Part shown: positions 8,782-43,795 of the stretch, piece after piece
How positions within the stretch are numbered: position 1 is the stretch's first letter
Layout of the letters: the number at the start of each line of letters is the position of its first letter
DNA from: an uncultured Bacilli bacterium
Lineage (GTDB): Bacteria > Bacillota_I > Bacilli_A > RF39 > UBA660
DNA length: 64,000 bases
NCBI GenBank assembly: GCA_910584165.1
Contig: CAJTZU010000002.1
Location: 9,595-73,594 of the forward strand
Direction: 5' to 3'
Made by a program: the position numbers and the translations under genes
The notes under the pieces: generated by a model
Database searches by the model: none
Seen by the model: the letters and a program-made list of their open reading frames with translations, nothing else
Told to the model about the DNA's origin: nothing

Positions 8782-9252
8782 CTACTTACAAGTATATCCT
8801 TCTTCTGTCATCACTTGTTTTAATTCTTCCTTCTTCATATTCATACTATAAAGTTCTTTATTTTCTTCGCTCAAAGCTGCCGCTAAAATATCAACCGTAA
8901 GAGTTACTTTATTCCCTTTTGTAGAAACAACTGCTTCGATTCCATCTACTTTATTATAGTTTTCAGCAGAACTTCTAGCTGCATTTTCCCTTTCTGCTAT
9001 AATCGTATCATTATTATAATCGCCTAATAAAGTCGCTGTAGATTTCATAGTGGCCTTTTTCACTTTACCTTGATTATAAATAAAAGTATATTTTACTTCA
9101 ATTTTATAATTTTCATCTTCATCTTGTGCACTACACACTAATCTATTTTCCCCACAACCTGTTAATAAAAATAAACTAAGAAGCACTAATAATATATTTT
9201 TTTTCATAGGAACCTCCTGTGTCATTATAACAAATATCCCCTCAAAATTCAA
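8782..9252 (-). CDS. lipoprotein, hypothetical
   Basis: Signal peptide + lipobox LLTGC; overlaps spmB stop, so in dacB-spmAB operon. Confidence 0.5.
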   Translation of the reverse strand: MNFEGIFVIMTQEVPMKKNILLVLLSLFLLTGCGENRLVCSAQDEDENYKIEVKYTFIYNQGKVKKATMKSTATLLGDYNNDTIIAERENAARSSAENYNKVDGIEAVVSTKGNKVTLTVDILAAALSEENKELYSMNMKKEELKQVMTEEGYTCK

Positions 9253-24507: not shown

Positions 24508-27500
24508 TTACACCCCTCTCTTAATATTTACATTTACATTATGAGTTTGTTTATCATTAACTAATTCTATTTCTTTTACAATTTTTCCATCTAGTCTAAT
24601 TTCATCGTTATCTCTATTATTATTGACATTAATAATATATGTTGTATCTTCAAATTGATAAGTAATTTTATATCCTTCCCATTTACTTGGAATAGATGGC
24701 AAAATATAAAGTTTATTTCCTATCTTATTGAATCCTAAAATATTGGAAATAGCAACTCTGTAAAACCAACCACTAGAACCAGTATACCAAGTCCATCCCC
24801 CATGTCCAATAAAATGCGGATTACTATAAATATCAGCAGCTATAACATATGGTTCAACTTGATACTCTTCTACTTGACTTTTTGTCATGGTATGATGAAC
24901 AGGGTTAATCATTTGGTAACAATGATAAGCTCTATCATTTAAACCAAGTTTTAAAAGAGCCATAATCCACCATGCGACAGAATGGGTATATTGACCACCA
25001 TTCTCGCGTATACCACTAGCATAATCTTTAATATATCCAGGATTATTTTTAGGGTTTGAAAAAGCTGGTGTTAGCAATTTGATAAAGCCATGCTCTTGAT
25101 TTACTAAATTATCTTCTACTGCCATAACAATAGATTTTATTTGCTTTTCTAATGCAATATCCGTTAAAATAGCCCAACTTTGAGAAATTAAGTCAATTTT
25201 ACATTCCTCATTTTCCTTACTTCCAAGTTTATCGCCATTATCAAAATAAGCACGTAAATAATGTTCTCCATCCCAAGCATTTTCTCGTAAAGCCTGTTTT
25301 AAATCTTCATTAAATTTTTCATATTTAGAAACATCTTCATTTTTATATGTAGAGGCGATTTCCATAAAACGATTAACAACTTCATAGGCAAAAAAACCTA
25401 ACCATACACTTGTACCTTTTCCTTTGATACCAACATGGTTCATTCCGTCATTCCAATCTCCACCACCCATTAATGGGATTCCATTCTCCCCCATTTCGTG
25501 GAAAAGTTTATCTATAACAAGAACCAAATGCTCATATAAAGATACTTTCGTTTCACTATAACTAAATGACATTCCTCTTTCTTCTTCATCTGGATATAGC
25601 AAATCTCCTTCTACAAATGGAACAAGCTCTTCCAAAATAGAAGAATCATTTGTTATTCTTAAATATTCCATAGTCGCATAAATTAACCATAAATAGTCGT
25701 CTTTGTATCGTGAGCGTAATCCAAAATGATTTTCAACATGCCACCAATGAAGTACATCCCCTTCTTTAAATTGGTGTTTCGCACATATTAAAATTTGTTT
25801 ACGAGCTGCTTCGCTATCTACAATGCATACATTCATAGAATCCTGTAATTGATCGCGGAAACCAAATGCCCCTCCAACCTGATAAAAACCAGATTTTGCC
25901 ATAATACGAGATGCGAATGTTTGATATAAATACCAATGATTAATCATAAAGTCAAAAGAATCTTCAGAAGTTTTTACTTGAATAACACCAAGTTTTTTCT
26001 TCCACCATTCCTTTGTTTCTTCTAATTTATTTTGAACATAAACAATATTATTATATTTTTCTACTTGTGATTGAATAGAATCTTTATTTTTTTCACAACC
26101 CAATAAAAACGCAAATGTTATAGAATCTTTTTTCTCTAAATTCTTAGAAATATGAATACTTTTAGATAAAACTGCATCCGTATCAACGCTTGTAATCTCT
26201 TCTGTACTACTCATATATACAATATTTTCTTTAAAAGCAAGAGCATACTTATTCTGAATCGTTAAGAAATTATTTAGCTCATAGTAATTGCATACTAAAT
26301 GCCTTACTGTTTTTTCTTCAGATACACCAAGAATTGGATTAATCCAATAACGAATGTCTAAGTCTAAATCTTTAGAAGATACATTTTTTAATGTGAATAA
26401 AGCTACTTTAACATTATCCTCTGGCGGTACAAAATAAGTAACATCTATTTTATAATCTTTATTTTTAAATTTAAATTTACTATATCCTATTCCATGAATA
26501 CAGTCATACCAATTAATTAATTGATTATTGACACTGATTCCTTCTGATTTATCATCAATAATGGTATCATTTGTCCAAGATGTTAGCTTATATTCCCTAC
26601 TGTTGTCAGAATAAGTAAAACTATTATCTTTATTAGTAATAACTGTACCAAAATTACCATTGGTTAAAACATTTGACCAAGGCATTGGCGTATTAGGATT
26701 TGTAACGTGATATTCACTACCATCACGAGTAAATCCACCAAATTCATTTTGATATACCAATTCTTCATCATCATTTGTATTATCACTATTTAAGACTTGC
26801 TGCTCTATATAATCATTAATTTTATTTTCTTTTTGTAATCTATCAATCTGTTCTCTTAATGAATTATTATAAACTGTATTAAATGTTAATCTAGCAATAC
26901 TTCTAAATAAATTAATTTGTTCTTCGCTCATCTTATTTTTATCTAATAAAATAACACGACCTGGAGTATTAGAAAAACTATTTATAGCATACATACGATA
27001 TAATTCATCGGAAACAACCTTAGAAATTGTTTTTGCATTCTTTTCATCAGAACTATTTATAATAACTAAATCAACAAAGATACATTTACTTTTATAATAC
27101 TCAAACGTTTTTAATAGTTCCTGAACTAAACTAACAGAACCTATATCATTAATTTCTACTAGTATAATTGGCCTATCTCCACTTACACCAAAGCTCCATA
27201 AAGTATCTTGACCTAAAGAGTTATCTGTCAATAATTGTTTTCTTGTTTCATTTAAATTAATACGACTAGTTTGATATAAATAATTAAGCATCATGTTATA
27301 TAAATGTACATCTGCTCCTGTTACACCTAATTTTTTAGTAGCAGAATTTGTCATCATTGTTGTAAGCTCAAAAGCCTCTTCAATCAATTCTTCATTGCCA
27401 TAGGCATTCACAATTGCTAAAACCTGCTCTTCTGATTTTCCAAATCCGTTAATCATATAAACAGTTATCTCTTCTCCAGATGGAATTTCAATACGGTTGC

Positions 27501-30500
27501 GAATACTGCTAATAGGATCTAGGTTTTCTCCTACATAGTTTGTTAATTTGGTATGAAGACCACTTGGATTATGATAGTTTGTACCATTCGCAATAAAATG
27601 ACTTCTCTCTGTTTCATAACTGTAAGAATCTATAGGATTATCTATTAATAATCTACTAATCATATAATATTTATCCCTAGTTCCACGAATTCTTCTATTT
27701 AAAATTAAAGAATTCGTTTCTTCATGATAACTAGATTTTATAAACATATTATTAAACACGCGATGACCAATATCTGCTTCCACTTCACAAAGAATAGGTT
27801 CCGTATAAGTTGTCAACTCTAATTTTTTTGCTTTTGGTGAAACATTTCGAATCGTAATTTTTCTTATTTCAGCATTATGTCCTTTGGTAACAATAATTTC
27901 TGAATTTGTTACAATATCATTATCCACTCTCATATATTTAATACGATCTAAAGAGAATACGACATTATATCTTTCTGGTTTTATATTTGTTGGAGCATAC
28001 GTATTACTCCAAACCTGATTATTCTCTAAATCCCTAATGTATAAGAAATTTCCATACTCTTGTTCTGTAATTTTTCTAGAACGATTTAACTGAATAGTTT
28101 TATATCGGCTAAATCCAGAACCTCTATCATTTAATAAAACACAATATCTAGAATTTGATAAAACAGAAACTTCTGGTCGTAATGAAATATAAGAATATTC
28201 TCTAATATCATTTTCAAAGGATTCTTTTTCATAATCATATTTTTTATATTTTACAATTTTTAAATCTATCATTGGTTCTATTTGAACTTTTTCTTTATTC
28301 AATACATCAAAAGATTGTACACGAATATCATCATAGAAATAATTTTGAAGTGTATTATTACAAAGATAATTTGCTAAAGAGCAAAGAATCATTCCTTGAT
28401 GATGCGCAAAATAAGAAAATATCGGTGTTTTATCTTCATAATCATAAGATTCAAAGAAACCATAATCACCATACATTTTTAACTTTTTAAATTTCTGCAA
28501 ATTATTATAAACATCTTTTGGAAATTTAGAAACTGCTAAAGCAGAACTATAAGGAGATAGTACAATTCTTTCCTCTACATTATCCCTAAATTTTAAATAA
28601 GGAGTTCCAAATGCTTTATATTTATAGTTTTGAGAATCATCTAATAAATTATAAGCTGTTTCACTAATTCCCCATGGCATATCATTATCAATAGTACGCA
28701 TATATTCTTTTTGACAATAATGTGCAAAATAATAACTTTCATCCATCAAAGTATTCTGATAATCTTTCATCCAAATAAGAGGCATATAATATTCGAAAGA
28801 AGTTCCAGACCAAGAAAGTAGACCTTTTCTTCCTTGGAATGTCGTCAAAGTCTTATCTAACAAAAACCAATGTTGTTTTTTTACATCCCCTTTTGCAATA
28901 GCAATAAAGCTAGTAAGCCTTGCTTCACTTGCAAATTTATTGTAGTGGAACGGAATTAATTGTTCATTATAAGCATCATATCCACAGCTAAATACCATTT
29001 CTTCTCTATTAAATAAATATTTAAAATTTGTTTGTTGAATTAAATTTTCAATTCTATTTTTTAAATTTTTACTACCATATTTTTTTACAAAAGATTTTGT
29101 CACCATTAAAGAAGCAACAAAGTTCCCACTATCTACTGTAGAAATTGTTGGTGGGTTCATCTTTTGTAAAGTTTTAATATTGTACCAATTGTATAAATGG
29201 CCATGCCATTTTTCTAATTTCTCTACTGTTTCAATCACTTTTTCAATTCGATAAACGGCATCTTCGTAAGAAGTAAATTTTAATTCTGCTGCACTAATAA
29301 GGGACATTAAAGAAAATCCTATATTAGTAGGAGAAGTTTTAATATCTTCTTTAATCTCTCTATTTAATTGGTAATTGTCTACAATTAAATAATTATTTTC
29401 TGACACTAAAAATCTATCATAAAACTTCCATGTATCATGCGCTAAAACATTTAATGAATCCATTTCTTTTTTAGTTAATTTTTTGGCCTCTTGGCGAATA
29501 GGCTTACTGATTAAATAGAAAACACTATTACTTACAAAGAAAATAAGACTGACTCCTAAAGCTAAAGTAAAATAATTTCTTTGTAAAAAATATACTAAAA
29601 CTAATAATAATAAAGAAACTAAATAATTAATTTTAAAATTAGATAAATAAGATAAAAAATTATTCTTTGTTTTCTTAGATGCTTCATCTGCTGTTACCCA
29701 AGCAAGTAAATGTTTATGACTAATATGTAAACGATAAATAGCACGAATAAAAGCATCAGCATATAATTTAGCATTATATGGAAGAGCACTAAAAGTAGAT
29801 AAGGTTCTAATAAATACAGATTCAAAACCATAAGCAATATTACGGTAATGCTTAATTTTTAATGTCCTTTCTTTCTGAATTTTTAGCTTATCTTGAATAT
29901 AGAAAATAATTGGTAAAATTAAAACCAAAGTTACAAATAAAATCCACCACGCAGGATTATATACACCAAGTAGAAATGCTGCAAATATAGTTGCTAATAA
30001 AAATAAGTCTACTAATCCACGTCTAATATTATCAAATAGCTTCCATTTTTCTATTAAATTTAGAGGAGCTTTTTTACTACTCATATAGGATAAAACTTGC
30101 ATATCTCCTCTAGCCCATCTGTGTCTTCTATTAGCATCTGCTAAAAAGTTAGATGGAAAATCGTCTATTACTTCTACATCAGATACAAATCCGCATCGAA
30201 TATAATTCCCTTCTAATAAATCGTGACTTAAAATCCTATTTTCAGGAAATATTCCAGATAATGTTTCGTCAAAAACAGATAAATCATAAATTCCTTTTCC
30301 CCAGAAACTTCCTTCTTTAAATACATCCTGATAAAAATTAGCAATTACTTTACTATAGATGTCATATCCACCTATACCAGCATAAATCTGTGTAAAAAAT
30401 GATTGGTTAGTGGATTCTACATCTACACTTACTTTTGGTTGCATAATTCCATAACCTTTTACTATCTTAGTATGGTTTTGATTAAAAACTGGCTTGTTAA

Positions 30501-32172
30501 GAGGATGTGCCATAGCTCCTACTAATTGGAATGCAGAACCTAATACTAATTGAGTGTCTTGGTCTAAAGTAATCACATATTTAATTTTTTTCTTAAAGTC
30601 TGTAAAATTATGGCCCATATAATATTTTTGTTGGTCTTCTAAAGATAATTTTCCTAATAATAATTTATTGAAATGCCCTAAAGCACCTCTTTTTCTCTCA
30701 TATCCTAACCATTCTTCTTCTGATTCATTATATACTCTTTTACGATACGCAAAATAGAAAATTTCTTTTCCATATTTTTTATTTAACATCTCTGCCTTTT
30801 TTAATCCAGCTTCCAATATTTCATCATCAAAAGGCTCTATTTGATGCTCGCTAGAAGAACAATCCCCTAGTAAAGTAAAATACAAATTGTCGCTTTTGTT
30901 TGCTAAATAATAAGATTCCAAAGAGTCAAACATAGTATTTACTTTTTCAGTATTTTTTAAAATAGTAACAATTACTGTCATTGTAGCGGAACTTTTCGGT
31001 ATTCCATCACTAAAGTCTAATTTGGGAATTGGTTCTGGTTTATAAATTTTCAAGTAAACTCTACTAGCTATTTGCATTACAATTTCACTCATTGGAACTA
31101 GTAAAATTAATAAGCCTAAAAATCTTGGTCTAATAAAATATTTAGAAGCAAGGAATGCTAATAAAAAACTTAAAACAACTACTAAAGAAACATATAAAAA
31201 AGAGCGCAATTTTAATAATTCCTTTTTTTGTAAATATTCTCCAATATGCTTATTTTCTTTTGTTGCTATAGCAATTACACTCTTCGCATAATCATATTCA
31301 CATTGTTTCCTTTTTTTCGCATTTTTAATAATTAAACCACGATAAGTTTGTTTTGTTTCTATCGTCATTTGACCATAATAAGAATCCATTAATAGAATAT
31401 ATTCAGTTTTACTAACTTTTCGATATAATTCTTCTATTTTCATGCGATTGATTTTAACAATACTATTAAAAATATTGGCTACTAGCATATTTTCATCAGC
31501 AGCAGATTGATATACACTTTCAATAATATTATTCAATTTAATAGATTTTCTATCTAAGATTTCATTTAATTGTTTAAATACATCATTAGAAATAGTACCT
31601 AATTCTTTTAATCCAGCATTTAATTTTTCTAAATAAACAGGTCTTTGAATAATATCTTCTGTTAACGTAATATAATCTTTTAAATTTACTTCATGATATT
31701 TATTAACATCACTTTCAATCGTTTCGATTAACTCTTTTACTTCAAATTCATCATCTAATTTTTTCTTTTCTCTTTCACACAAAGTAACTAATTCATTCAC
31801 TAATACTAAATAGGCTACTACCCCTATAGAATTAATTTCATGATAAGTAAAACGATAACTAAAGTTATCTTGATAGCGATTTAATTCTTTAATTAGAATA
31901 GAAACATCTATTTTGTACTTATTTCTCTTTAAAATTTTTTTCATTACTTGGTAGAGATCTAAACTATTTTCAAAAGCATATTTATAAGCTTTTCTATCTT
32001 TTAAAAAGTTTTTAGTAGTCTTTTTTTGTTCAACTATTAAATAATAGTTATCTATTATCCACTCATTAGTTGTTCCAATATAGCAATGATTCTTAGTTAG
32101 TTGTGTTAAATATGCATAATAGGAAGATAATGTTTTCATGTTTTTATTAAAATTCTTTCTGTATCTTTTCAT
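24508..32172 (-). CDS. cyclic beta-1,2-glucan synthase-like protein (NdvB/Cgs-like: N-terminal membrane GT2-like glycosyltransferase + C-terminal GH94 phosphorylase-like domain), 2554 aa
   Basis: GT-A DxD (TLDQDT) and RRHRWARGD (QxxRW-like) motifs flanked by TM helices; C-terminal (alpha/alpha)6 GH94 hallmark GGGDWNDGMN. Confidence 0.7.
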   Translation of the reverse strand: MKRYRKNFNKNMKTLSSYYAYLTQLTKNHCYIGTTNEWIIDNYYLIVEQKKTTKNFLKDRKAYKYAFENSLDLYQVMKKILKRNKYKIDVSILIKELNRYQDNFSYRFTYHEINSIGVVAYLVLVNELVTLCEREKKKLDDEFEVKELIETIESDVNKYHEVNLKDYITLTEDIIQRPVYLEKLNAGLKELGTISNDVFKQLNEILDRKSIKLNNIIESVYQSAADENMLVANIFNSIVKINRMKIEELYRKVSKTEYILLMDSYYGQMTIETKQTYRGLIIKNAKKRKQCEYDYAKSVIAIATKENKHIGEYLQKKELLKLRSFLYVSLVVVLSFLLAFLASKYFIRPRFLGLLILLVPMSEIVMQIASRVYLKIYKPEPIPKLDFSDGIPKSSATMTVIVTILKNTEKVNTMFDSLESYYLANKSDNLYFTLLGDCSSSEHQIEPFDDEILEAGLKKAEMLNKKYGKEIFYFAYRKRVYNESEEEWLGYERKRGALGHFNKLLLGKLSLEDQQKYYMGHNFTDFKKKIKYVITLDQDTQLVLGSAFQLVGAMAHPLNKPVFNQNHTKIVKGYGIMQPKVSVDVESTNQSFFTQIYAGIGGYDIYSKVIANFYQDVFKEGSFWGKGIYDLSVFDETLSGIFPENRILSHDLLEGNYIRCGFVSDVEVIDDFPSNFLADANRRHRWARGDMQVLSYMSSKKAPLNLIEKWKLFDNIRRGLVDLFLLATIFAAFLLGVYNPAWWILFVTLVLILPIIFYIQDKLKIQKERTLKIKHYRNIAYGFESVFIRTLSTFSALPYNAKLYADAFIRAIYRLHISHKHLLAWVTADEASKKTKNNFLSYLSNFKINYLVSLLLLVLVYFLQRNYFTLALGVSLIFFVSNSVFYLISKPIRQEAKKLTKKEMDSLNVLAHDTWKFYDRFLVSENNYLIVDNYQLNREIKEDIKTSPTNIGFSLMSLISAAELKFTSYEDAVYRIEKVIETVEKLEKWHGHLYNWYNIKTLQKMNPPTISTVDSGNFVASLMVTKSFVKKYGSKNLKNRIENLIQQTNFKYLFNREEMVFSCGYDAYNEQLIPFHYNKFASEARLTSFIAIAKGDVKKQHWFLLDKTLTTFQGRKGLLSWSGTSFEYYMPLIWMKDYQNTLMDESYYFAHYCQKEYMRTIDNDMPWGISETAYNLLDDSQNYKYKAFGTPYLKFRDNVEERIVLSPYSSALAVSKFPKDVYNNLQKFKKLKMYGDYGFFESYDYEDKTPIFSYFAHHQGMILCSLANYLCNNTLQNYFYDDIRVQSFDVLNKEKVQIEPMIDLKIVKYKKYDYEKESFENDIREYSYISLRPEVSVLSNSRYCVLLNDRGSGFSRYKTIQLNRSRKITEQEYGNFLYIRDLENNQVWSNTYAPTNIKPERYNVVFSLDRIKYMRVDNDIVTNSEIIVTKGHNAEIRKITIRNVSPKAKKLELTTYTEPILCEVEADIGHRVFNNMFIKSSYHEETNSLILNRRIRGTRDKYYMISRLLIDNPIDSYSYETERSHFIANGTNYHNPSGLHTKLTNYVGENLDPISSIRNRIEIPSGEEITVYMINGFGKSEEQVLAIVNAYGNEELIEEAFELTTMMTNSATKKLGVTGADVHLYNMMLNYLYQTSRINLNETRKQLLTDNSLGQDTLWSFGVSGDRPIILVEINDIGSVSLVQELLKTFEYYKSKCIFVDLVIINSSDEKNAKTISKVVSDELYRMYAINSFSNTPGRVILLDKNKMSEEQINLFRSIARLTFNTVYNNSLREQIDRLQKENKINDYIEQQVLNSDNTNDDEELVYQNEFGGFTRDGSEYHVTNPNTPMPWSNVLTNGNFGTVITNKDNSFTYSDNSREYKLTSWTNDTIIDDKSEGISVNNQLINWYDCIHGIGYSKFKFKNKDYKIDVTYFVPPEDNVKVALFTLKNVSSKDLDLDIRYWINPILGVSEEKTVRHLVCNYYELNNFLTIQNKYALAFKENIVYMSSTEEITSVDTDAVLSKSIHISKNLEKKDSITFAFLLGCEKNKDSIQSQVEKYNNIVYVQNKLEETKEWWKKKLGVIQVKTSEDSFDFMINHWYLYQTFASRIMAKSGFYQVGGAFGFRDQLQDSMNVCIVDSEAARKQILICAKHQFKEGDVLHWWHVENHFGLRSRYKDDYLWLIYATMEYLRITNDSSILEELVPFVEGDLLYPDEEERGMSFSYSETKVSLYEHLVLVIDKLFHEMGENGIPLMGGGDWNDGMNHVGIKGKGTSVWLGFFAYEVVNRFMEIASTYKNEDVSKYEKFNEDLKQALRENAWDGEHYLRAYFDNGDKLGSKENEECKIDLISQSWAILTDIALEKQIKSIVMAVEDNLVNQEHGFIKLLTPAFSNPKNNPGYIKDYASGIRENGGQYTHSVAWWIMALLKLGLNDRAYHCYQMINPVHHTMTKSQVEEYQVEPYVIAADIYSNPHFIGHGGWTWYTGSSGWFYRVAISNILGFNKIGNKLYILPSIPSKWEGYKITYQFEDTTYIINVNNNRDNDEIRLDGKIVKEIELVNDKQTHNVNVNIKRGV

Positions 32173-37927: not shown

Positions 37928-38221
37928 ATGTTTTCATTTTTTAAAAAGCCAGAAAATATCGTACTTCCTTCTGAATTTCAGGATTTTCCTGCCTATACTG
38001 GAATTATAAAAAAAGGACCAATTTTAATTGATAAAACAGAGTACTCTAGAATCTCCTATTATGTAAAAGGAGGAATAGAAGAATATAAACAAGTTTTAAA
38101 TAATTATGGATATAGTCAAAAGTCAGAAGTAAAATTTCAAAATCAATTTAATGATAATTATATTATTATTGAAAAAGAAGGTTTCGTACAATATAAAATT
38201 GCTTATCATAAAAAAAAGTAG
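37928..38221 (+). CDS. hypothetical protein
   Basis: ORF; TGnTATAGT extended -10 about 25 nt upstream. Confidence 0.35.
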   Translation: MFSFFKKPENIVLPSEFQDFPAYTGIIKKGPILIDKTEYSRISYYVKGGIEEYKQVLNNYGYSQKSEVKFQNQFNDNYIIIEKEGFVQYKIAYHKKK

Positions 38222-38226
38222 ATATT

Positions 38227-38934
38227 CTACTTTTTTCTTTTACTACTAATAATTGGATATTTGAAAGAATACTGCCATCCAGACTCTTTGGTTACCTCAA
38301 AACCATCTTTCTCTTGCAGTTTTGCTAAAGCATAAATCTCATCTACATAACTACCATAACTAATAAGAGCACTAGGAATTGCTAGATTACTAGAATGTAC
38401 ACAACCGCACATTGCTAAAAAGAATTCCTTATGCTCTTTTGTTGCTTTTCTAATAATCATACGAGTTGCTTCACATGGCATAATTCCTACCACTAAATCA
38501 TAAGACTCTACTGACATTTCTTCTGTAAAGCATTCTTTATGCAATGCAATATTTCCTAATCTATCCACAATTAAATCTGGATCATAAACAGTAATCGTTC
38601 CTTTACTTCCATTTTCTTGTTGAAATTCATCTACATATTTTGAAAACATTGGAAAAAAACCTCCACCTATTTCTAAAATATGAGAATTCCATCCATATCT
38701 TTCCCCTATCATATTAGCAAATCCTAAGTAACAGTTTTCATCCTCATTTAAAATACCAAATAAAGCATAAATTTGTTTTAATAAATCTGTCGTATCACTA
38801 ATTGGCATTCTCTCTAAAAAATGTTCTTCAATAAATTGAACTGCTAAATCAGGATATTTATCTTGATAAATTTTTAAATAATGAGATAGCATTTTTAAAT
38901 AAACAATTTTATCTATTTCACTTATTCTAGACAT
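38227..38934 (-). CDS. hypothetical Rossmann-fold protein (SAM-methyltransferase-like GxGxG), downstream of RT
   Basis: HILEIGGGFF (motif I-like), TVYDPD (acidic post-I), DLVVGIMPCEA; strong SD AAAGGGGA 7 nt before ATG. Confidence 0.4.
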   Translation of the reverse strand: MSRISEIDKIVYLKMLSHYLKIYQDKYPDLAVQFIEEHFLERMPISDTTDLLKQIYALFGILNEDENCYLGFANMIGERYGWNSHILEIGGGFFPMFSKYVDEFQQENGSKGTITVYDPDLIVDRLGNIALHKECFTEEMSVESYDLVVGIMPCEATRMIIRKATKEHKEFFLAMCGCVHSSNLAIPSALISYGSYVDEIYALAKLQEKDGFEVTKESGWQYSFKYPIISSKRKK

Positions 38935-38969: not shown

Positions 38970-38997
38970 TAAGAAAAAAGAGTTGTCAAAACTCTTT
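38970..38997 (-). terminator. terminator/attenuator-like hairpin overlapping RT stop codon
   Basis: Minus strand aaagagtt-ttgac-aactcttt followed by UUUUCUUAU; stop codon TGA lies in loop. Confidence 0.4.
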
Positions 38998-40173
38998 AAA
39001 TTTATAATAAGCATTTACAAGGCTTTTATAACCATTTTCTTTTAATAATTGATAAGGAACTTTCCACTGATTACTTTCATGATAATTACCAGTCATAATA
39101 TATCTTAAATTTTTTTGAAAATAATTATCAATCTCGCGTAACCCAGAAACACTATTAATAACAGGAAAATACCAAATACTCCAATTTAATTCTTTCCCTT
39201 TTTTCTCATAAAAAAATTTATAATTGAAAATAGTATTCATAGATTTTAAAGCTTTTTCTAATGGAATATTTTTTCTAATTGCCCATCTTCTAAGTGCTTT
39301 AGCTTTTCTTTTTATTTTAGTCTTCATTTTCTCTTTTGCATGATTTGATAAATCTATGGTTCCTTGAAAGTAAGAAAATCCCAAAAATTCAAGTTTCTCA
39401 TTAGGAGTATAGTATTTTTCTTTAGAAAGATTGATTTCTAAGCTTGCTTCTTTAAAATATTGCTTTATAAAAAAGACTTTCTTTTCTAGCTCTTCTTTTG
39501 TACTAGCAAATAAAATAATATCATCTGCATATCTAGCATAATTACTATCCTTCATTTGAAAATCTAATGGTGATAAATATATATTAGATAAAAAGCAAGA
39601 AATGGGAGTTCCTGCCATTACTCCTTTTTTCTCATATAAGATTTTTCCATCATACAGAACTCTATCATCCAATAATATTTTCTCTAATAACCGATAACTT
39701 TTTTCATCTATTTTTCCATTTAATATTTCTAGTAAAGAATCTATCGGTATACTATTAAAGTAATTTTGAATATCCACCTTATAACCATAACCAGAAAAAG
39801 ACTTTTGAATTGATAAAAATGCTTGTTTTGGTCCTACTTTTCTCCTAAAAGAATAACAATTATCACACAAAAGGAATTCATACTCTGAAAAAAGAAAATG
39901 AATCATCTTTAAAATAATATTCTCTTCTTCTCTAAATTGATAAATAACTCTTTTTTTAGAAGAATGATTTTTATTAATTAACTTTTTTTGAGGAATCGAA
40001 AAAGTATATGCTTCTTCTACTATCTTTTGAGAAATGGGTAAATATCTTTTTTCTTCTATATATTGTTTTAATTTTTGATATTCTCTTTTCTTTAGATTTT
40101 TTTCTTCTAAAAATTGAAGCCATTTATCATGATTTATTAAACCGTCTAACACAGACACTATTTTCACCACCAT
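38986..40173 (-). CDS. reverse transcriptase (RNA-directed DNA polymerase), orphan group-II-intron-like/DGR-like class, no endonuclease domain
   Basis: RT motifs 1-7: KKRVIYQF / CYSFRRKVGPKQAF / DIQNYFNSI / AGTPISCFLSNIYLSPLD / YARYADDIIL / LEINLSKEK / LEFLGFSY; thumb-like C-terminus; 395 aa. Confidence 0.85.
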   Translation of the reverse strand: MVVKIVSVLDGLINHDKWLQFLEEKNLKKREYQKLKQYIEEKRYLPISQKIVEEAYTFSIPQKKLINKNHSSKKRVIYQFREEENIILKMIHFLFSEYEFLLCDNCYSFRRKVGPKQAFLSIQKSFSGYGYKVDIQNYFNSIPIDSLLEILNGKIDEKSYRLLEKILLDDRVLYDGKILYEKKGVMAGTPISCFLSNIYLSPLDFQMKDSNYARYADDIILFASTKEELEKKVFFIKQYFKEASLEINLSKEKYYTPNEKLEFLGFSYFQGTIDLSNHAKEKMKTKIKRKAKALRRWAIRKNIPLEKALKSMNTIFNYKFFYEKKGKELNWSIWYFPVINSVSGLREIDNYFQKNLRYIMTGNYHESNQWKVPYQLLKENGYKSLVNAYYKFKEF

Positions 40174-40298
40174 GGAAGAGAAAAAATTGAATAATCAATA
40201 TATTGATTAATGACTGGATTATATATATCAAAGTCACTTGCAAAACATCATACATGATATACTGAATCCCCTACAAGTGTGTTTCCACATCTCTTCCA
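40174..40298 (-). ncRNA. candidate structured 5-prime leader / ncRNA upstream of RT (terminal 9-nt inverted repeats, GAAA-tetraloop hairpin)
   Basis: Minus-strand transcript predicted to start at UGGAAGAGA (40298-40290) and end at UCUCUUCCA overlapping AUG (40181-40173); internal ugug-GAAA-caca hairpin. Confidence 0.3.
40192..40209. promoter_or_regulatory. 18-bp perfect palindrome TAATCAATATATTGATTA, candidate operator, 18 bp upstream of RT start
   Basis: Exact self-reverse-complement verified by hand. Confidence 0.45.
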
Positions 40299-40303
40299 AA
40301 ATC

Positions 40304-40336
40304 ATTATAGCAGTTCCTTTCTACAAAGTCTATTTC
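40304..40336 (-). promoter_or_regulatory. extended -10 promoter (TGcTATAAT) driving RT leader
   Basis: Minus-strand tagact-17-TGcTATAAT; predicted TSS ~7 nt downstream coincides with 5-prime inverted repeat. Confidence 0.45.
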
Positions 40337-40422
40337 TATAAAATGACATTTTTCTAATCTTTTAGTAGCATATTTTAAAAAAATTCAGTATAATACAACT
40401 ACAAAGAAGGAAGGAAGTATTT

Positions 40423-41565
40423 ATGTCATCGTTTCAAAACAATAAAAAAAGATTTTATGTAACTATTTTTACTATTATCCTATTTTTAGGAAGTATTTCG
40501 ATAGCTATCATTTTAGATAAGCCAAAGAAGAAAGAAAATTATCCAGTTAGAAAACCTAACTCTACTAGTATAAGTAACAATGGAAACTCTGATAAATTTA
40601 CAAATGACAACACAAATACAAATTCTCAAAATAATCAAGATTCTAAAAAGGAGAATTCTAACACAAATAAGTCTAGTAATTCCCAATCATCATCTAGTAA
40701 AGTTACCAATAATATAAAAACTAGTAATTCTAATCAAAGTAAACCTTCAAATACAGCAAGTAATTCCAATACCAATTCTAATAAGCCTACAAATTCTAAC
40801 ACAACAAGCAACTCCAATACCAATTCTAATACAAGCTCTAATAAGCCAGTAGAGCCACCTAAAAATGAAGATAAAAATAATAGTAAAAGAAAATCTATTG
40901 AAAAGGCATATGGGGTTAAAATATTATATGGGAATGAAATAGGTTCCTACAAACCTAAAGGAATAACTCCTACAAAATTAACTAACGATAATGATATTGA
41001 AAATTATCTAAATCGTCTCAATACAGAATTAGCAAAATATCCTAAAAACTTCTTTCAAGATTTCAATAAAAAAGGAATGCCACTTACCATTTATTTAATT
41101 AAAAGTGCGAATGGTGCTTTTTCTGGGTTTACTGATTATCAATTTATGAATGATATTAAACTAACTTTAACAACAGATTTTGAATTTGAATATACTTTTC
41201 ATCATGAAATAATGCATTATATCGATTGCTATCTAAATATTGTTATGTACCCCAAAACTCCTTATGAAGAATTTGAAGCATTAAATCCAAAAGAATTTCA
41301 ATATGGAAAAGCATCTAGTTCTCAAATATATAATATGGCAAATAATCCTAGAGGGGCTTATTTTATTTCCAAATATGGAGCTAGTAATGTTGCAGAAGAT
41401 AGAGCTGAAATTTTTAAATATATGACAGCTAGAGCATATGCTCCTATTGGATGTTTTGAAAAAGAGGAAATTATTCGAAAAAAAGCAATTATTATTAGTA
41501 AACAAATAAAAACTTATTTTCCATCAGTAACAACAGATGCTCATTGGGATAGATTTATAAAATAA
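40423..41565 (+). CDS. membrane-anchored/secreted protein with Asn/Ser/Thr-rich low-complexity linker and C-terminal HExxH zinc-metallopeptidase-like domain
   Basis: N-terminal TM (FYVTIFTIILFLGSISIAIIL), ~100 aa NSNT repeats, C-terminal FHHEIMHYID; promoter TATAAT at ~40389 and RBS AAGGAAGGAAG. Confidence 0.5.
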   Translation: MSSFQNNKKRFYVTIFTIILFLGSISIAIILDKPKKKENYPVRKPNSTSISNNGNSDKFTNDNTNTNSQNNQDSKKENSNTNKSSNSQSSSSKVTNNIKTSNSNQSKPSNTASNSNTNSNKPTNSNTTSNSNTNSNTSSNKPVEPPKNEDKNNSKRKSIEKAYGVKILYGNEIGSYKPKGITPTKLTNDNDIENYLNRLNTELAKYPKNFFQDFNKKGMPLTIYLIKSANGAFSGFTDYQFMNDIKLTLTTDFEFEYTFHHEIMHYIDCYLNIVMYPKTPYEEFEALNPKEFQYGKASSSQIYNMANNPRGAYFISKYGASNVAEDRAEIFKYMTARAYAPIGCFEKEEIIRKKAIIISKQIKTYFPSVTTDAHWDRFIK

Positions 41566-43477: not shown

Positions 43478-43795
43478 TTACATCATCTCATTTACTTTAG
43501 GACTATACTTCCCACTTGTTTCATCTAGTTTTTGCTGTTCTGCTCTTTCTAAGCAATACCAACCTCTTTGAAAAGCATAATCAAAAAATAATCTTTGTAA
43601 ATTAGATGTTTCATCAAAAATAGTTTTAATAACGTCATAAAGTGGTCTATTACTTGCTTCATTTAAAGCATAAGAGTAATTATTTACCATATTTTTTAAA
43701 CTTTCCAATAAATCATTTAAATAATTTTCATCATTCATATCTGTTGTTTGTGGTACTTCTACTTTTGGGTTCGTAACTTTATTTTGATTATTCAT
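43478..43795 (-). CDS. spore coat protein, CotF-like (Coat_F domain)
   Basis: LNDLLESLKNMVNNYSYALNEASN...LYDV..IFDET pattern. Confidence 0.55.
   Translation of the reverse strand: MNNQNKVTNPKVEVPQTTDMNDENYLNDLLESLKNMVNNYSYALNEASNRPLYDVIKTIFDETSNLQRLFFDYAFQRGWYCLERAEQQKLDETSGKYSPKVNEMM

Follow-up and report, generated by a model that had tools for sequence, protein, structure and literature searches.

What does the short intergenic region in front of a reverse transcriptase (RT) gene in a gut bacterium encode, and what might its product do for the RT? The question arises from a 64,000-nucleotide (nt) stretch of contig CAJTZU010000002.1 (assembly GCA_910584165.1, from an uncultured Bacilli bacterium), the whole of which we call the window. 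An earlier reading of its letters, made without database searches (the sequence-only reading), had proposed that a promoter-driven, structured leader with terminal inverted repeats lies upstream of the RT and could be a retron- or DRT-like non-coding RNA (ncRNA). The flagged leader is RT-5 RNA, a member of the already catalogued Rfam family RF03026, and it is the partner of a Class 2 UG26 RT. The family and the RT class bear out the DRT-like half of that proposal; the retron half is not borne out by the RT profiles described below. The window locus is an ordinary member of the RT-5 family, situated in a housekeeping region of a gut Bacillota metagenome-assembled genome (MAG).

RT-5 RNA and its UG26 reverse transcriptase

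A scan of the whole 64-kb window at Rfam gathering thresholds returned a single match, RF03026 ("RT-5 RNA"), on the minus strand at 40179..40282. It spans model positions 1-104 of 104 at 57.3 bits against a gathering score of 45.7 (E = 1.6e-08 over the window), and it adjoins the RT gene, ending 20 nt upstream of the GTG at 40158. The window RNA thus shares with RT-5 the full 104-position model above the gathering score, and also the RT neighbour that is the defining trait of its motif class, given that RT-1 to RT-19 are motifs found adjoining RT genes (Weinberg et al. 2017, NAR; PMC5737381). Those authors speculated that many RT motifs participate in retrons and gave no other function (PMC5737381), and RT-5 has been in Rfam since 2017 without an assigned function. 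The RT-5 paper gives no RT class, whereas the partner RT in the window is UG26.

The RT gene is on the minus strand at 38986..40158 and encodes 390 amino acids (aa). Its product matches the PADLOC profile RT_UG26 over its full length (E = 6.5e-131), and the next-best specific UG profiles, UG17, UG27 and UG4, follow at about 1e-30 (RT_UG17, E = 2.1e-31). Five sampled homologous RTs, 43-62% identical, are likewise all RT_UG26 (E = 1e-135 to 1e-163), with the next-best UG classes at about 1e-30 to 1e-40. Pfam finds RVT_1 and nothing else. Retron-type PADLOC profiles give partial matches at E of about 1e-16 or weaker, and the NCBIfam model retron_St85_RT reaches 63.6 bits where its cutoff is 235; the Drt2 profiles (E about 1e-13) and the Drt9 profile (E = 1.8e-19) also match in part. 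A group II intron origin was considered and rejected, as TIGR04416 scores 107.8 bits against a cutoff of 300 and the window has no group II intron match in Rfam. A sequence-profile search of the PDB found no UG26 structure; its nearest matches were a 224-aa RT (8bgj) and RTs of group II introns, together with DRT9 (E = 1e-21) and DRT2 (E = 2e-14).

UG26, with 35 members, has been discussed under the Class 2 UG/Abi RTs, with occasional linkage to a Vsr-like protein and no ncRNA reported (Mestre et al. 2022, PMC9226505). Full-text literature searches turned up neither a mention of an "RT-5 motif" nor any study of the UG26 RT after that one, such that neither an ncRNA nor a defence role is reported for UG26 in the searchable literature.

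Linkage, fold and transcription of the RNA

The intergenic region, 40174-40422, is 249 nt long. Read on the minus strand, it contains a promoter, GAUUU, UGGAAGAGA (40298-40290), the hairpin UGUG-GAAA-CACA and, at its far end, UCUCUUCCA (40181-40173), which is followed by UGGUGGUGAAAAUAGUG. The promoter is of the sigma-70 type (40304..40332, minus strand), with a -35-like TAGACT, a 17-nt spacer and a TG-extended TATAAT; it has 10 of 12 consensus matches and includes the extended -10 box that the sequence-only reading had pointed out. We infer that transcription would start near G40297, the first G of GGAAGAGA, about 7 nt past the -10 box. The 9-nt inverted repeat, also claimed as exact, is indeed 100% complementary between 40173-40181 and 40290-40298, with 108 nt between the arms, and it closes the single-sequence minimum-energy fold (-33.3 kcal/mol, z = -3.08).

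Taken by itself, this repeat is weak evidence, because a perfect inverted repeat of at least 9 nt occurs in 30% of dinucleotide shuffles of the 249-nt region and because promoter-like matches are not enriched there (13 found, 12.4 expected from shuffles). In a single sequence the 9-nt repeat is within chance, and its significance comes solely from comparison with other loci. The sequence-only reading had instead seen its significance in the coincidence of the repeat with the transcription start and the RT start codon, an argument whose start-codon half rests on a start that is probably mis-called (see below). A perfect 10-nt inverted repeat (TATACTGAAT/ATTCAGTATA, 40258-40267 / 40383-40392) is also present, between the 5' strand of helix P3 and DNA upstream of the ncRNA promoter. 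It extends outside the predicted RNA and is probably due to chance, as repeats of such lengths are common in shuffles.

For the comparison, a search with the RT family gave 1587 proteins at E <= 1e-10, and a genome scan retained as loci the best 80 of at least 533 confirmed encoded relatives. The 80 loci were taken from MAGs of gut and rumen Bacilli, Clostridia and Bacteroidales and from a single Methanomethylophilus bin; with the window they make 81 sources, and the structure counts below refer to 75 full-length RNAs. Rfam RT-5 scored above its gathering threshold directly upstream of the RT in 13 of the 18 homologous loci tried. A covariance model built from 14 sequences with a hand-given structure found exactly one match, on the RT strand and immediately upstream, in 77/81 sources (76/80 homologous loci; two matches are clipped by contig ends), and with filters off it recovered a divergent 78th copy in L022. 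Among the loci examined, RT-5 RNA is obligately linked to the UG26 RT.

Across these loci the leader is shown by comparative analysis to be a conserved structured RNA of about 125 nt, predicted to consist of a helix, P1, that closes a multiloop with P2, P3 and P4, and of a pseudoknot. The sequence-only reading had suggested folding with covariation across homologous loci as a check on its proposal. Over the whole structure, 89.9% of the cells are paired. Shuffles give 68.0%, and sliding of the 3' partners gives 44-47%; 42 of 44 pairs have changes on both sides. RNAalifold on a plain MAFFT alignment recovered 8 pairs only, because the P1 and P2 arms vary in length. A hand-given structure, the covariance-model alignment and a structure-registered, N-padded alignment were used instead; MAFFT had shifted three rows by one column.

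The terminal repeat corresponds to P1. Its 5' arm, (U)GGAAGAGA (40290..40298, minus strand), forms the 5' end of the RNA and gives the closing helix its purine-rich strand; the 3' arm, UCUCUUCC(A) (40173..40181, minus strand), gives the pyrimidine strand. A P1 helix of 6-19 base pairs (bp) is found in 75/75 RNAs, with 51 distinct 5' arms and changes on both sides at 9/9 pairs; examples of arm pairs are GGAAGAGA/UCUCUUCC, AGGAGAAGA/UCUUCUCCU, AGAGUAAGGAAGA/UCUUCCUUACUCU, AAAAGGUGGAAGA/UCUUCCACCUUUU and CGGAUAAGA/UCUUAUCCG. The sequence-only reading had held that a lack of conservation of the repeats among homologues would count against it, and the helix instead covaries throughout. The arms were picked by a best-helix search, which makes their paired fraction high by construction. 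The control is therefore the mean best helix, which is 11.5 with cognate flanks, 7.9 with non-cognate flanks and 6.7 with shuffled flanks, and 6.4% of non-cognate partners equal the cognate one.

P1 is asymmetric in all 75 loci, with a 5' arm that is 96% purine, a pyrimidine 3' arm and often a U-tract after it. Three ideas were considered to explain this bias: a triplex, a role like that of a polypurine tract, and a function as terminator. A triplex of the U-tail on P1 was rejected, as the clade of the window lacks the U-tract and the registers fit only in part. A small open reading frame (ORF) beginning at an AUG in the 5' arm was rejected as well, since the AUG is not conserved (UG, CG or UA follows P1). 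So was a Shine-Dalgarno/anti-Shine-Dalgarno switch, for which the spacing is too short and which would have to account for the same purine/pyrimidine bias in Bacteroidales loci. Bacteroidales make little use of Shine-Dalgarno pairing.

Downstream of the 5' arm, the hairpin UGUG-GAAA-CACA noted by the sequence-only reading is the conserved P2 (40278..40289, minus strand). A hairpin of 2-13 bp is found at this position in 75/75 RNAs, with 40 distinct arm sequences and compensatory changes at 6/6 pairs. Next comes the 5' strand of the pseudoknot, ACUUGU (40273..40278, minus strand), which is predicted to pair with GCAAGU (40236-40241) in the terminal loop of P3, UUGCAAGU. The consensus is GCCUGC after P2 and GCAGGC in the P3 loop, and the nearest relative, L001, has ACUGGU/GCCAGU. 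The pseudoknot is 100% paired in the 75 sequences, with changes on both sides at 6/6 pairs, and its columns come from covariance-model alignment A4, which was built without the pseudoknot and so was not fitted to this pairing.

P3 itself (40215..40270, minus strand; Rfam alignment, inverted repeat I2) is a long interrupted hairpin that forms the core of Rfam RT-5. Pairing reaches 87.7% in its helix 4 and 95.7% in its helix 5, and both show compensatory changes. It is followed by the junction J3/4, GUCAUU (40209..40214, minus strand), in which GU is invariant in alignments A2, A3 and A5 and which is 6 nt long in 53/75 loci. P4, AAUCAA-UAUA-UUGAUU (40193..40208, minus strand; Rfam alignment, inverted repeat I5), is a hairpin found in every locus, although its columns register poorly in the covariance-model alignment (55.7% paired). 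J4/1, AUUCAAUUUUU (40182..40192, minus strand), is the final stretch of the central loop; it is 9-11 nt long in 68/75 loci and starts with a conserved UCAAA (consensus UCAAAAUCAU). A UUC-containing direct repeat stands at both ends of J4/1 in 48/75 loci, most commonly at a spacing of 10 nt; in the window it reads UUC-AAUUUU-UUC, with the second UUC entering P1. The GUGACU/AGUCAU stem of the sequence-only reading is present in the window and in its minimum-energy fold, but its conservation is that of shuffled sequences (61.6% of cells paired versus 61.9%).

The fold described here goes beyond the Rfam model. That model starts within the 3' arm of P2 and leaves its 3' tail unpaired, and hence has neither the 5' arm of P1 nor that of P2. 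Its structure line contains no pseudoknot, whereas the window RNA and its homologues have one.

The position of P1 bears on where the RT gene starts. The mechanically called RT ORF is 38986..40173, beginning with the ATG at 40173, and public gene calls for the identical locus differ, with JGI giving 395 aa (ATG 40173), and NCBI and Logan 390 aa (GTG 40158). Thirty homologues start with MSVLD/MSxLD, which in the alignment is residue 6 of the mechanically called ORF, and a Shine-Dalgarno sequence, GGUGGUG, lies at 40171-40165 with a 6-nt spacer to the GTG. Because of the homologue N-termini and this Shine-Dalgarno sequence, the RT most likely starts at the GTG (40158-40156) rather than at the ATG at 40173. 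With that start, the 3' arm of P1 would not functionally overlap the start codon, and the RT would have a Shine-Dalgarno sequence. The overlap of the repeat with the A of an AUG, reported by the sequence-only reading, is real for the mechanical ORF and not for the likely start, and the reported absence of a Shine-Dalgarno sequence is an artefact of the mis-called start.

Promoters at other loci agree with an RNA that begins at P1. In 20 Firmicutes-type loci, 3-12 nt separate the end of an exact TATAAT from the first nucleotide of P1 (5-7 nt in 17/20), and L018, L020 (about 385-410) and L027 have TTGACA-17/18-TAxxAT promoters that end 2-4 nt before the RNA match. In two Clostridia loci the RNA and the RT are separated by an intrinsic terminator, a hairpin followed by a U-run (L018:4112-4141 and L027:2082-2107), and by these signals the ncRNA in these Clostridia would be its own transcription unit. 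In 48/75 loci, U makes up five or more of the 8 nt that follow P1. The RT also has a Shine-Dalgarno sequence of its own downstream of P1, which favours a discrete RNA over an mRNA leader only. Taken together, these patterns suggest that the RNA starts at P1 and that many lineages at least partly terminate transcription right past P1, with read-through giving the RT messenger RNA (mRNA). The promoter, the conserved helices and the linkage to the RT thus support the idea of a promoter-driven structured ncRNA attached to the RT gene.

Possible roles of the RNA

We consider it likely that RT-5 RNA is a structured ncRNA that serves the adjacent UG26 RT as both scaffold and template, a reading to which we assign a probability of about 70%. 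The ncRNAs on which Class 2 UG RTs depend are encoded in cis and contain a short template flanked by two stem-loops (bioRxiv 10.64898/2026.06.29.735271), and the characterised RTs of this class all use such an ncRNA as scaffold and template for iterative complementary DNA (cDNA) synthesis (bioRxiv 10.1101/2025.10.16.682844; 10.64898/2026.06.29.735271). We infer RT binding and templating, as well as the cDNA product and any anti-phage role. In this scenario, the extended -10 promoter would start the RNA at the purine-rich 5' arm of P1; the 3' arm of P1 would lie just upstream of the RT ribosome-binding site, with the P2, P3 and P4 multiloop enclosed; and the RT would bind the RNA as a scaffold and copy a short internal segment into cDNA, as its characterised Class 2 relatives do. 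The most likely template would be J4/1, framed by P4 and P1 with its UUC...UUC direct repeat. We propose this junction because of its DRT9/DRT10-like topology, its constrained length, its conserved UCAAA and the flanking UUC repeat. The predicted product would consist of 9-10-nt A/T-rich tandem repeats, (AAAATTGAA)n in the window and (GATTTTGAAT)n in Bacteroidales loci; such tandem-repeat synthesis by UG26/RT-5 is offered as a hypothesis.

A more specific version, which we put forward only tentatively, is that UG26 and RT-5 form a defence-type, telomerase-like RT system. J4/1 (AUUC-AAAAUC-AUUC; UUC-AAUUUU-UUC in the window) would be recopied into A/T-rich tandem-repeat DNA, and either of two linked protein families, U and W, could serve as an effector or sensor module. 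U (about 170 aa) precedes the ncRNA in 48/81 sources, on its strand and with about 8-12 nt between them. W (about 95-218 aa) is convergent with the RT and often overlaps its 3' end, in 15/81 sources, among them the window, where it is the 97-aa ORF at 37928..38221 on the plus strand. Other ORFs of these two families include L038:1462-1983 and L063:6183-6656. The two are never found together in any of the 81 sources, and a comparison with hhalign detected no homology between them (probability 0.5%). Neither has a significant match in Pfam, NCBIfam or PADLOC, and W has no fold match in the PDB. It is possible that U and W are accessory or effector proteins, their membership of the system being suggested by linkage.

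Several observations weigh against a template-bearing defence RNA, or against parts of that idea. The two UUC copies do not covary (3.16 nt for cognate pairs, 3.02 nt for non-cognate pairs), half of the second UUC falls within P1, and UUC...UUC could be a protein-recognition motif rather than an alignment element. The window and its clade lack a terminator or U-tract after P1, and in the window the RNA may exist only as the 5' untranslated region of the RT mRNA. Three of the 81 sources (L071, L077 and L079) have no clear motif by the covariance model with filters off. The window locus has no recognisable effector gene, and its surroundings are those of housekeeping genes (an SDR, a Met-gamma-lyase-family protein, a phosphoketolase, an RNB-family RNase, UDG and a rubrerythrin-like protein) rather than of a defence island. 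In addition, the association of UG26 with defence has been rated inconclusive (Mestre et al. 2022, PMC9226505).

Among the alternatives, we regard as unlikely a purely cis-acting 5' leader, namely an autoregulatory site bound by the RT or an attenuator of its gene, with no template role. RTs of group II introns control their own expression through binding to RNA at their start region; in the window the RNA abuts the RT ribosome-binding site with no terminator between, and the terminators or U-tracts past the structure in many loci could attenuate. However, the Shine-Dalgarno sequence and start codon lie downstream of P1 and are not sequestered, and the RNA keeps its own promoter even where gene U is immediately upstream. 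Moreover, a 125-nt pseudoknotted four-helix fold with invariant junction nucleotides exceeds the needs of an operator, and every Class 2 UG RT characterised so far templates on a neighbouring ncRNA. Cis-regulatory and template roles are not mutually exclusive.

A retron-like msr-msd, with P1 as the a1/a2 repeats, would prime from the 2'-OH of the G just 3' of the 5' arm and copy the 3' part of the RNA into branched msDNA. This agrees with the earlier speculation on RT motifs (Weinberg et al. 2017, PMC5737381), with terminal inverted repeats that enclose a structured RNA directly upstream of the RT, and with a G found 2 nt past the 5' arm of P1 in about 60/75 loci (UG in 49, CG in 11). We nevertheless find it quite improbable. 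The conserved G is the first paired base of P2, the RT is far closer to UG26 (E = 1e-131) than to the retron profiles, which match in part at about 1e-16 or weaker (retron_St85_RT, 63.6 vs 235 bits), and the locus has no retron-type effector gene. The pseudoknot ties the 5' strand to the P3 loop, and to our knowledge no retron has a pseudoknot that joins its 5' strand to a hairpin loop. The characterised Class 2 UG RTs also prime otherwise, from a serine in DRT10 (bioRxiv 10.1101/2025.10.16.682844), a protein in DRT9 and the RNA 3' end in DRT2 (PMC12039810).

Very doubtful is a DRT2-like rolling circle, in which the whole region enclosed by P1 would be copied repeatedly, with a jump at the base of P1, to yield a concatemeric endless (Neo-like) ORF. 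P1 does join the ends of a region of about 110 nt, and DRT2 has a looped, pseudoknotted ncRNA directly upstream of its RT (PMC12039810), but a stop-free frame on the circularised region exists in 23/75 loci and not in the window, the region length modulo 3 is evenly spread (26/26/23), and the Drt2 profile matches are partial (E about 1e-13). That the repeat is a functionless accident of AT-rich intergenic DNA can be practically dismissed, for although repeats of at least 9 nt are found in 30% of shuffles and promoter-like matches are not enriched, the helix is conserved and covaries over 75 loci of several phyla and the Rfam match is above threshold.

The 235-aa ORF immediately downstream of the RT (38227..38934, minus strand) has homologues in L001-L004 only and no significant match in Pfam, PADLOC or NCBIfam, and is probably lineage-specific rather than a core part of the system. 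PADLOC gave one marginal match among the neighbours (E = 2e-4), on a low-complexity stretch, and none that is convincing. The product of a divergent 380-aa ORF upstream (40423-41565, plus strand) combines a hydrophobic segment at its N-terminus with a long Ser/Asn/Thr-rich low-complexity region and, at its C-terminus, a domain bearing an HExxH motif. It weakly matches the LIC13305 lipoprotein family (E = 2e-20, below cutoff) and looks unrelated to the RT system. Further away in the window are a 2554-aa ORF (24508-32172, minus strand) with GH94 and glycoamylase-type glycoside hydrolase/phosphorylase domains, and a Coat_F (spore coat) gene at about 43478-43795 (minus strand). The host is a low-GC member of the Bacillota and probably forms spores. 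The gene order of the window is shared with MAG GCA_948728675.1 (contig CAPWRE010000001.1) and with JGI metagenomes 3300006147 and 3300006168.

Searches of IMG/VR and of phage and plasmid records yielded no UG26; the RTs found there are all distant, with identities of at most 31%. Transfer RNA (tRNA) genes lie downstream of the RT at a few hundred nt in L006 (6558-6643, minus strand) and at about 1.1 kb in L018 (6467-6540, plus strand); a tRNA beside the RT could mark an integration site. In L009, a c-di-GMP-I riboswitch lies 3 kb downstream of the RT (9161-9246, plus strand). Two sources are odd in their taxonomy: L077, from a Candidatus Methanomethylophilus MAG (an archaeal bin), has a UG26-like RT of 39% identity with no RT-5 RNA detected, and L001 is labelled Muribaculaceae (Bacteroidota), yet its locus is near-identical to the Bacilli-type one of the window, TATAAT promoter included. 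Binning contamination or horizontal transfer may explain both.

Comparison with known RT-ncRNA systems

From the perspective of known systems, the sequence-only reading was right in kind, in that it proposed a DRT-type ncRNA partner of an RT, and wrong on the retron analogy, the third stem and the argument from start codon and Shine-Dalgarno sequence. The likeness to retrons is one of geometry only, with terminal inverted repeats (P1, similar to a1/a2) that close a structured RNA just upstream of the RT. The differences are the UG26 clade of the RT, the pseudoknot, the lack of a long msd hairpin with a defined stop point, and the lack of an effector gene.

UG27 is a next-best profile for these RTs (E about 1e-31 to 1e-36), and like UG26 here it has a predicted conserved ncRNA and is found in gut Bacteroidetes and Firmicutes settings, but it is carried on phages with two associated protein clusters and its RNA has three long stem-loops (Mestre et al. 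2022). DRT2 (UG2) has in common with RT-5 a pseudoknotted ncRNA immediately upstream of an RT of about 400 aa without extra domains (Wilkinson et al. 2024, PMC12039810). It belongs to another RT class and makes 120-nt repeats; the RT-5 RNA is less than half the size of its ncRNA (DRT2 G277 is near the ncRNA 3' end; PMC12039810), and no endless ORF is conserved on a circularised RT-5 template.

DRT9 (UG28) is, like UG26/RT-5, a two-component system of a Class 2 RT and an upstream ncRNA, and the RT profile finds DRT9 structures (E = 1e-21). DRT9 produces poly-dA, and RT-5 has no conserved poly-U template loop; the U6 run in J4/1 of the window is missing in most homologues, and the Drt9 profile match of the window RT is partial (E = 1.8e-19).

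DRT10 (UG17), an RT-ncRNA-SLATT system, makes 9-nt tandem repeats in a telomerase-like manner. Its 137-nt ncRNA is built on a large central stem that bears smaller stem-loops, and the template, of the form A-B-A', lies in the central loop past the last of these; in the view of its authors, this RNA closely resembles the DRT9 ncRNA (bioRxiv 10.1101/2025.10.16.682844). DRT10 differs from the system described here in several respects. The window RT is UG26 (6.5e-131) and not UG17 (2.1e-31), no SLATT gene was found among its neighbours by Pfam or PADLOC, and the RT-5 ncRNA is directly upstream of the RT, whereas that of DRT10 is upstream of SLATT. RT-5 is also pseudoknotted, and no pseudoknot is mentioned for DRT10 (bioRxiv 10.64898/2026.06.29.735271). 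As to shared features, both RTs are Class 2 UG RTs, with UG17 among the next-best profiles, and the ncRNAs are of similar length (137 nt in DRT10, about 125-135 nt in RT-5). In each ncRNA a large stem closes a multiloop that bears smaller stem-loops, the last of which is joined to the closing stem by a short junction. The UUC...UUC at the ends of the RT-5 junction recalls the A-B-A' pattern, but its two copies do not covary.

We regard the tie to UG26, the extended fold and a layout similar to that of DRT9 and DRT10 as useful leads rather than a new category. Three results turn an orphan motif into a testable system: nearly every UG26 gene examined has one copy of the RNA upstream; the RNA model gains a covarying closing helix, a 5' hairpin and a pseudoknot; and a length-constrained junction occupies the position of the template in DRT9 and DRT10. 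Predictions on offer concern the RNA boundaries, compensatory mutants and the cDNA repeat unit. If true, a telomerase-like UG26/RT-5 would add a further Class 2 system, and would carry the closing-stem, two-anchor template logic over to a pseudoknotted RNA mainly of gut anaerobes.

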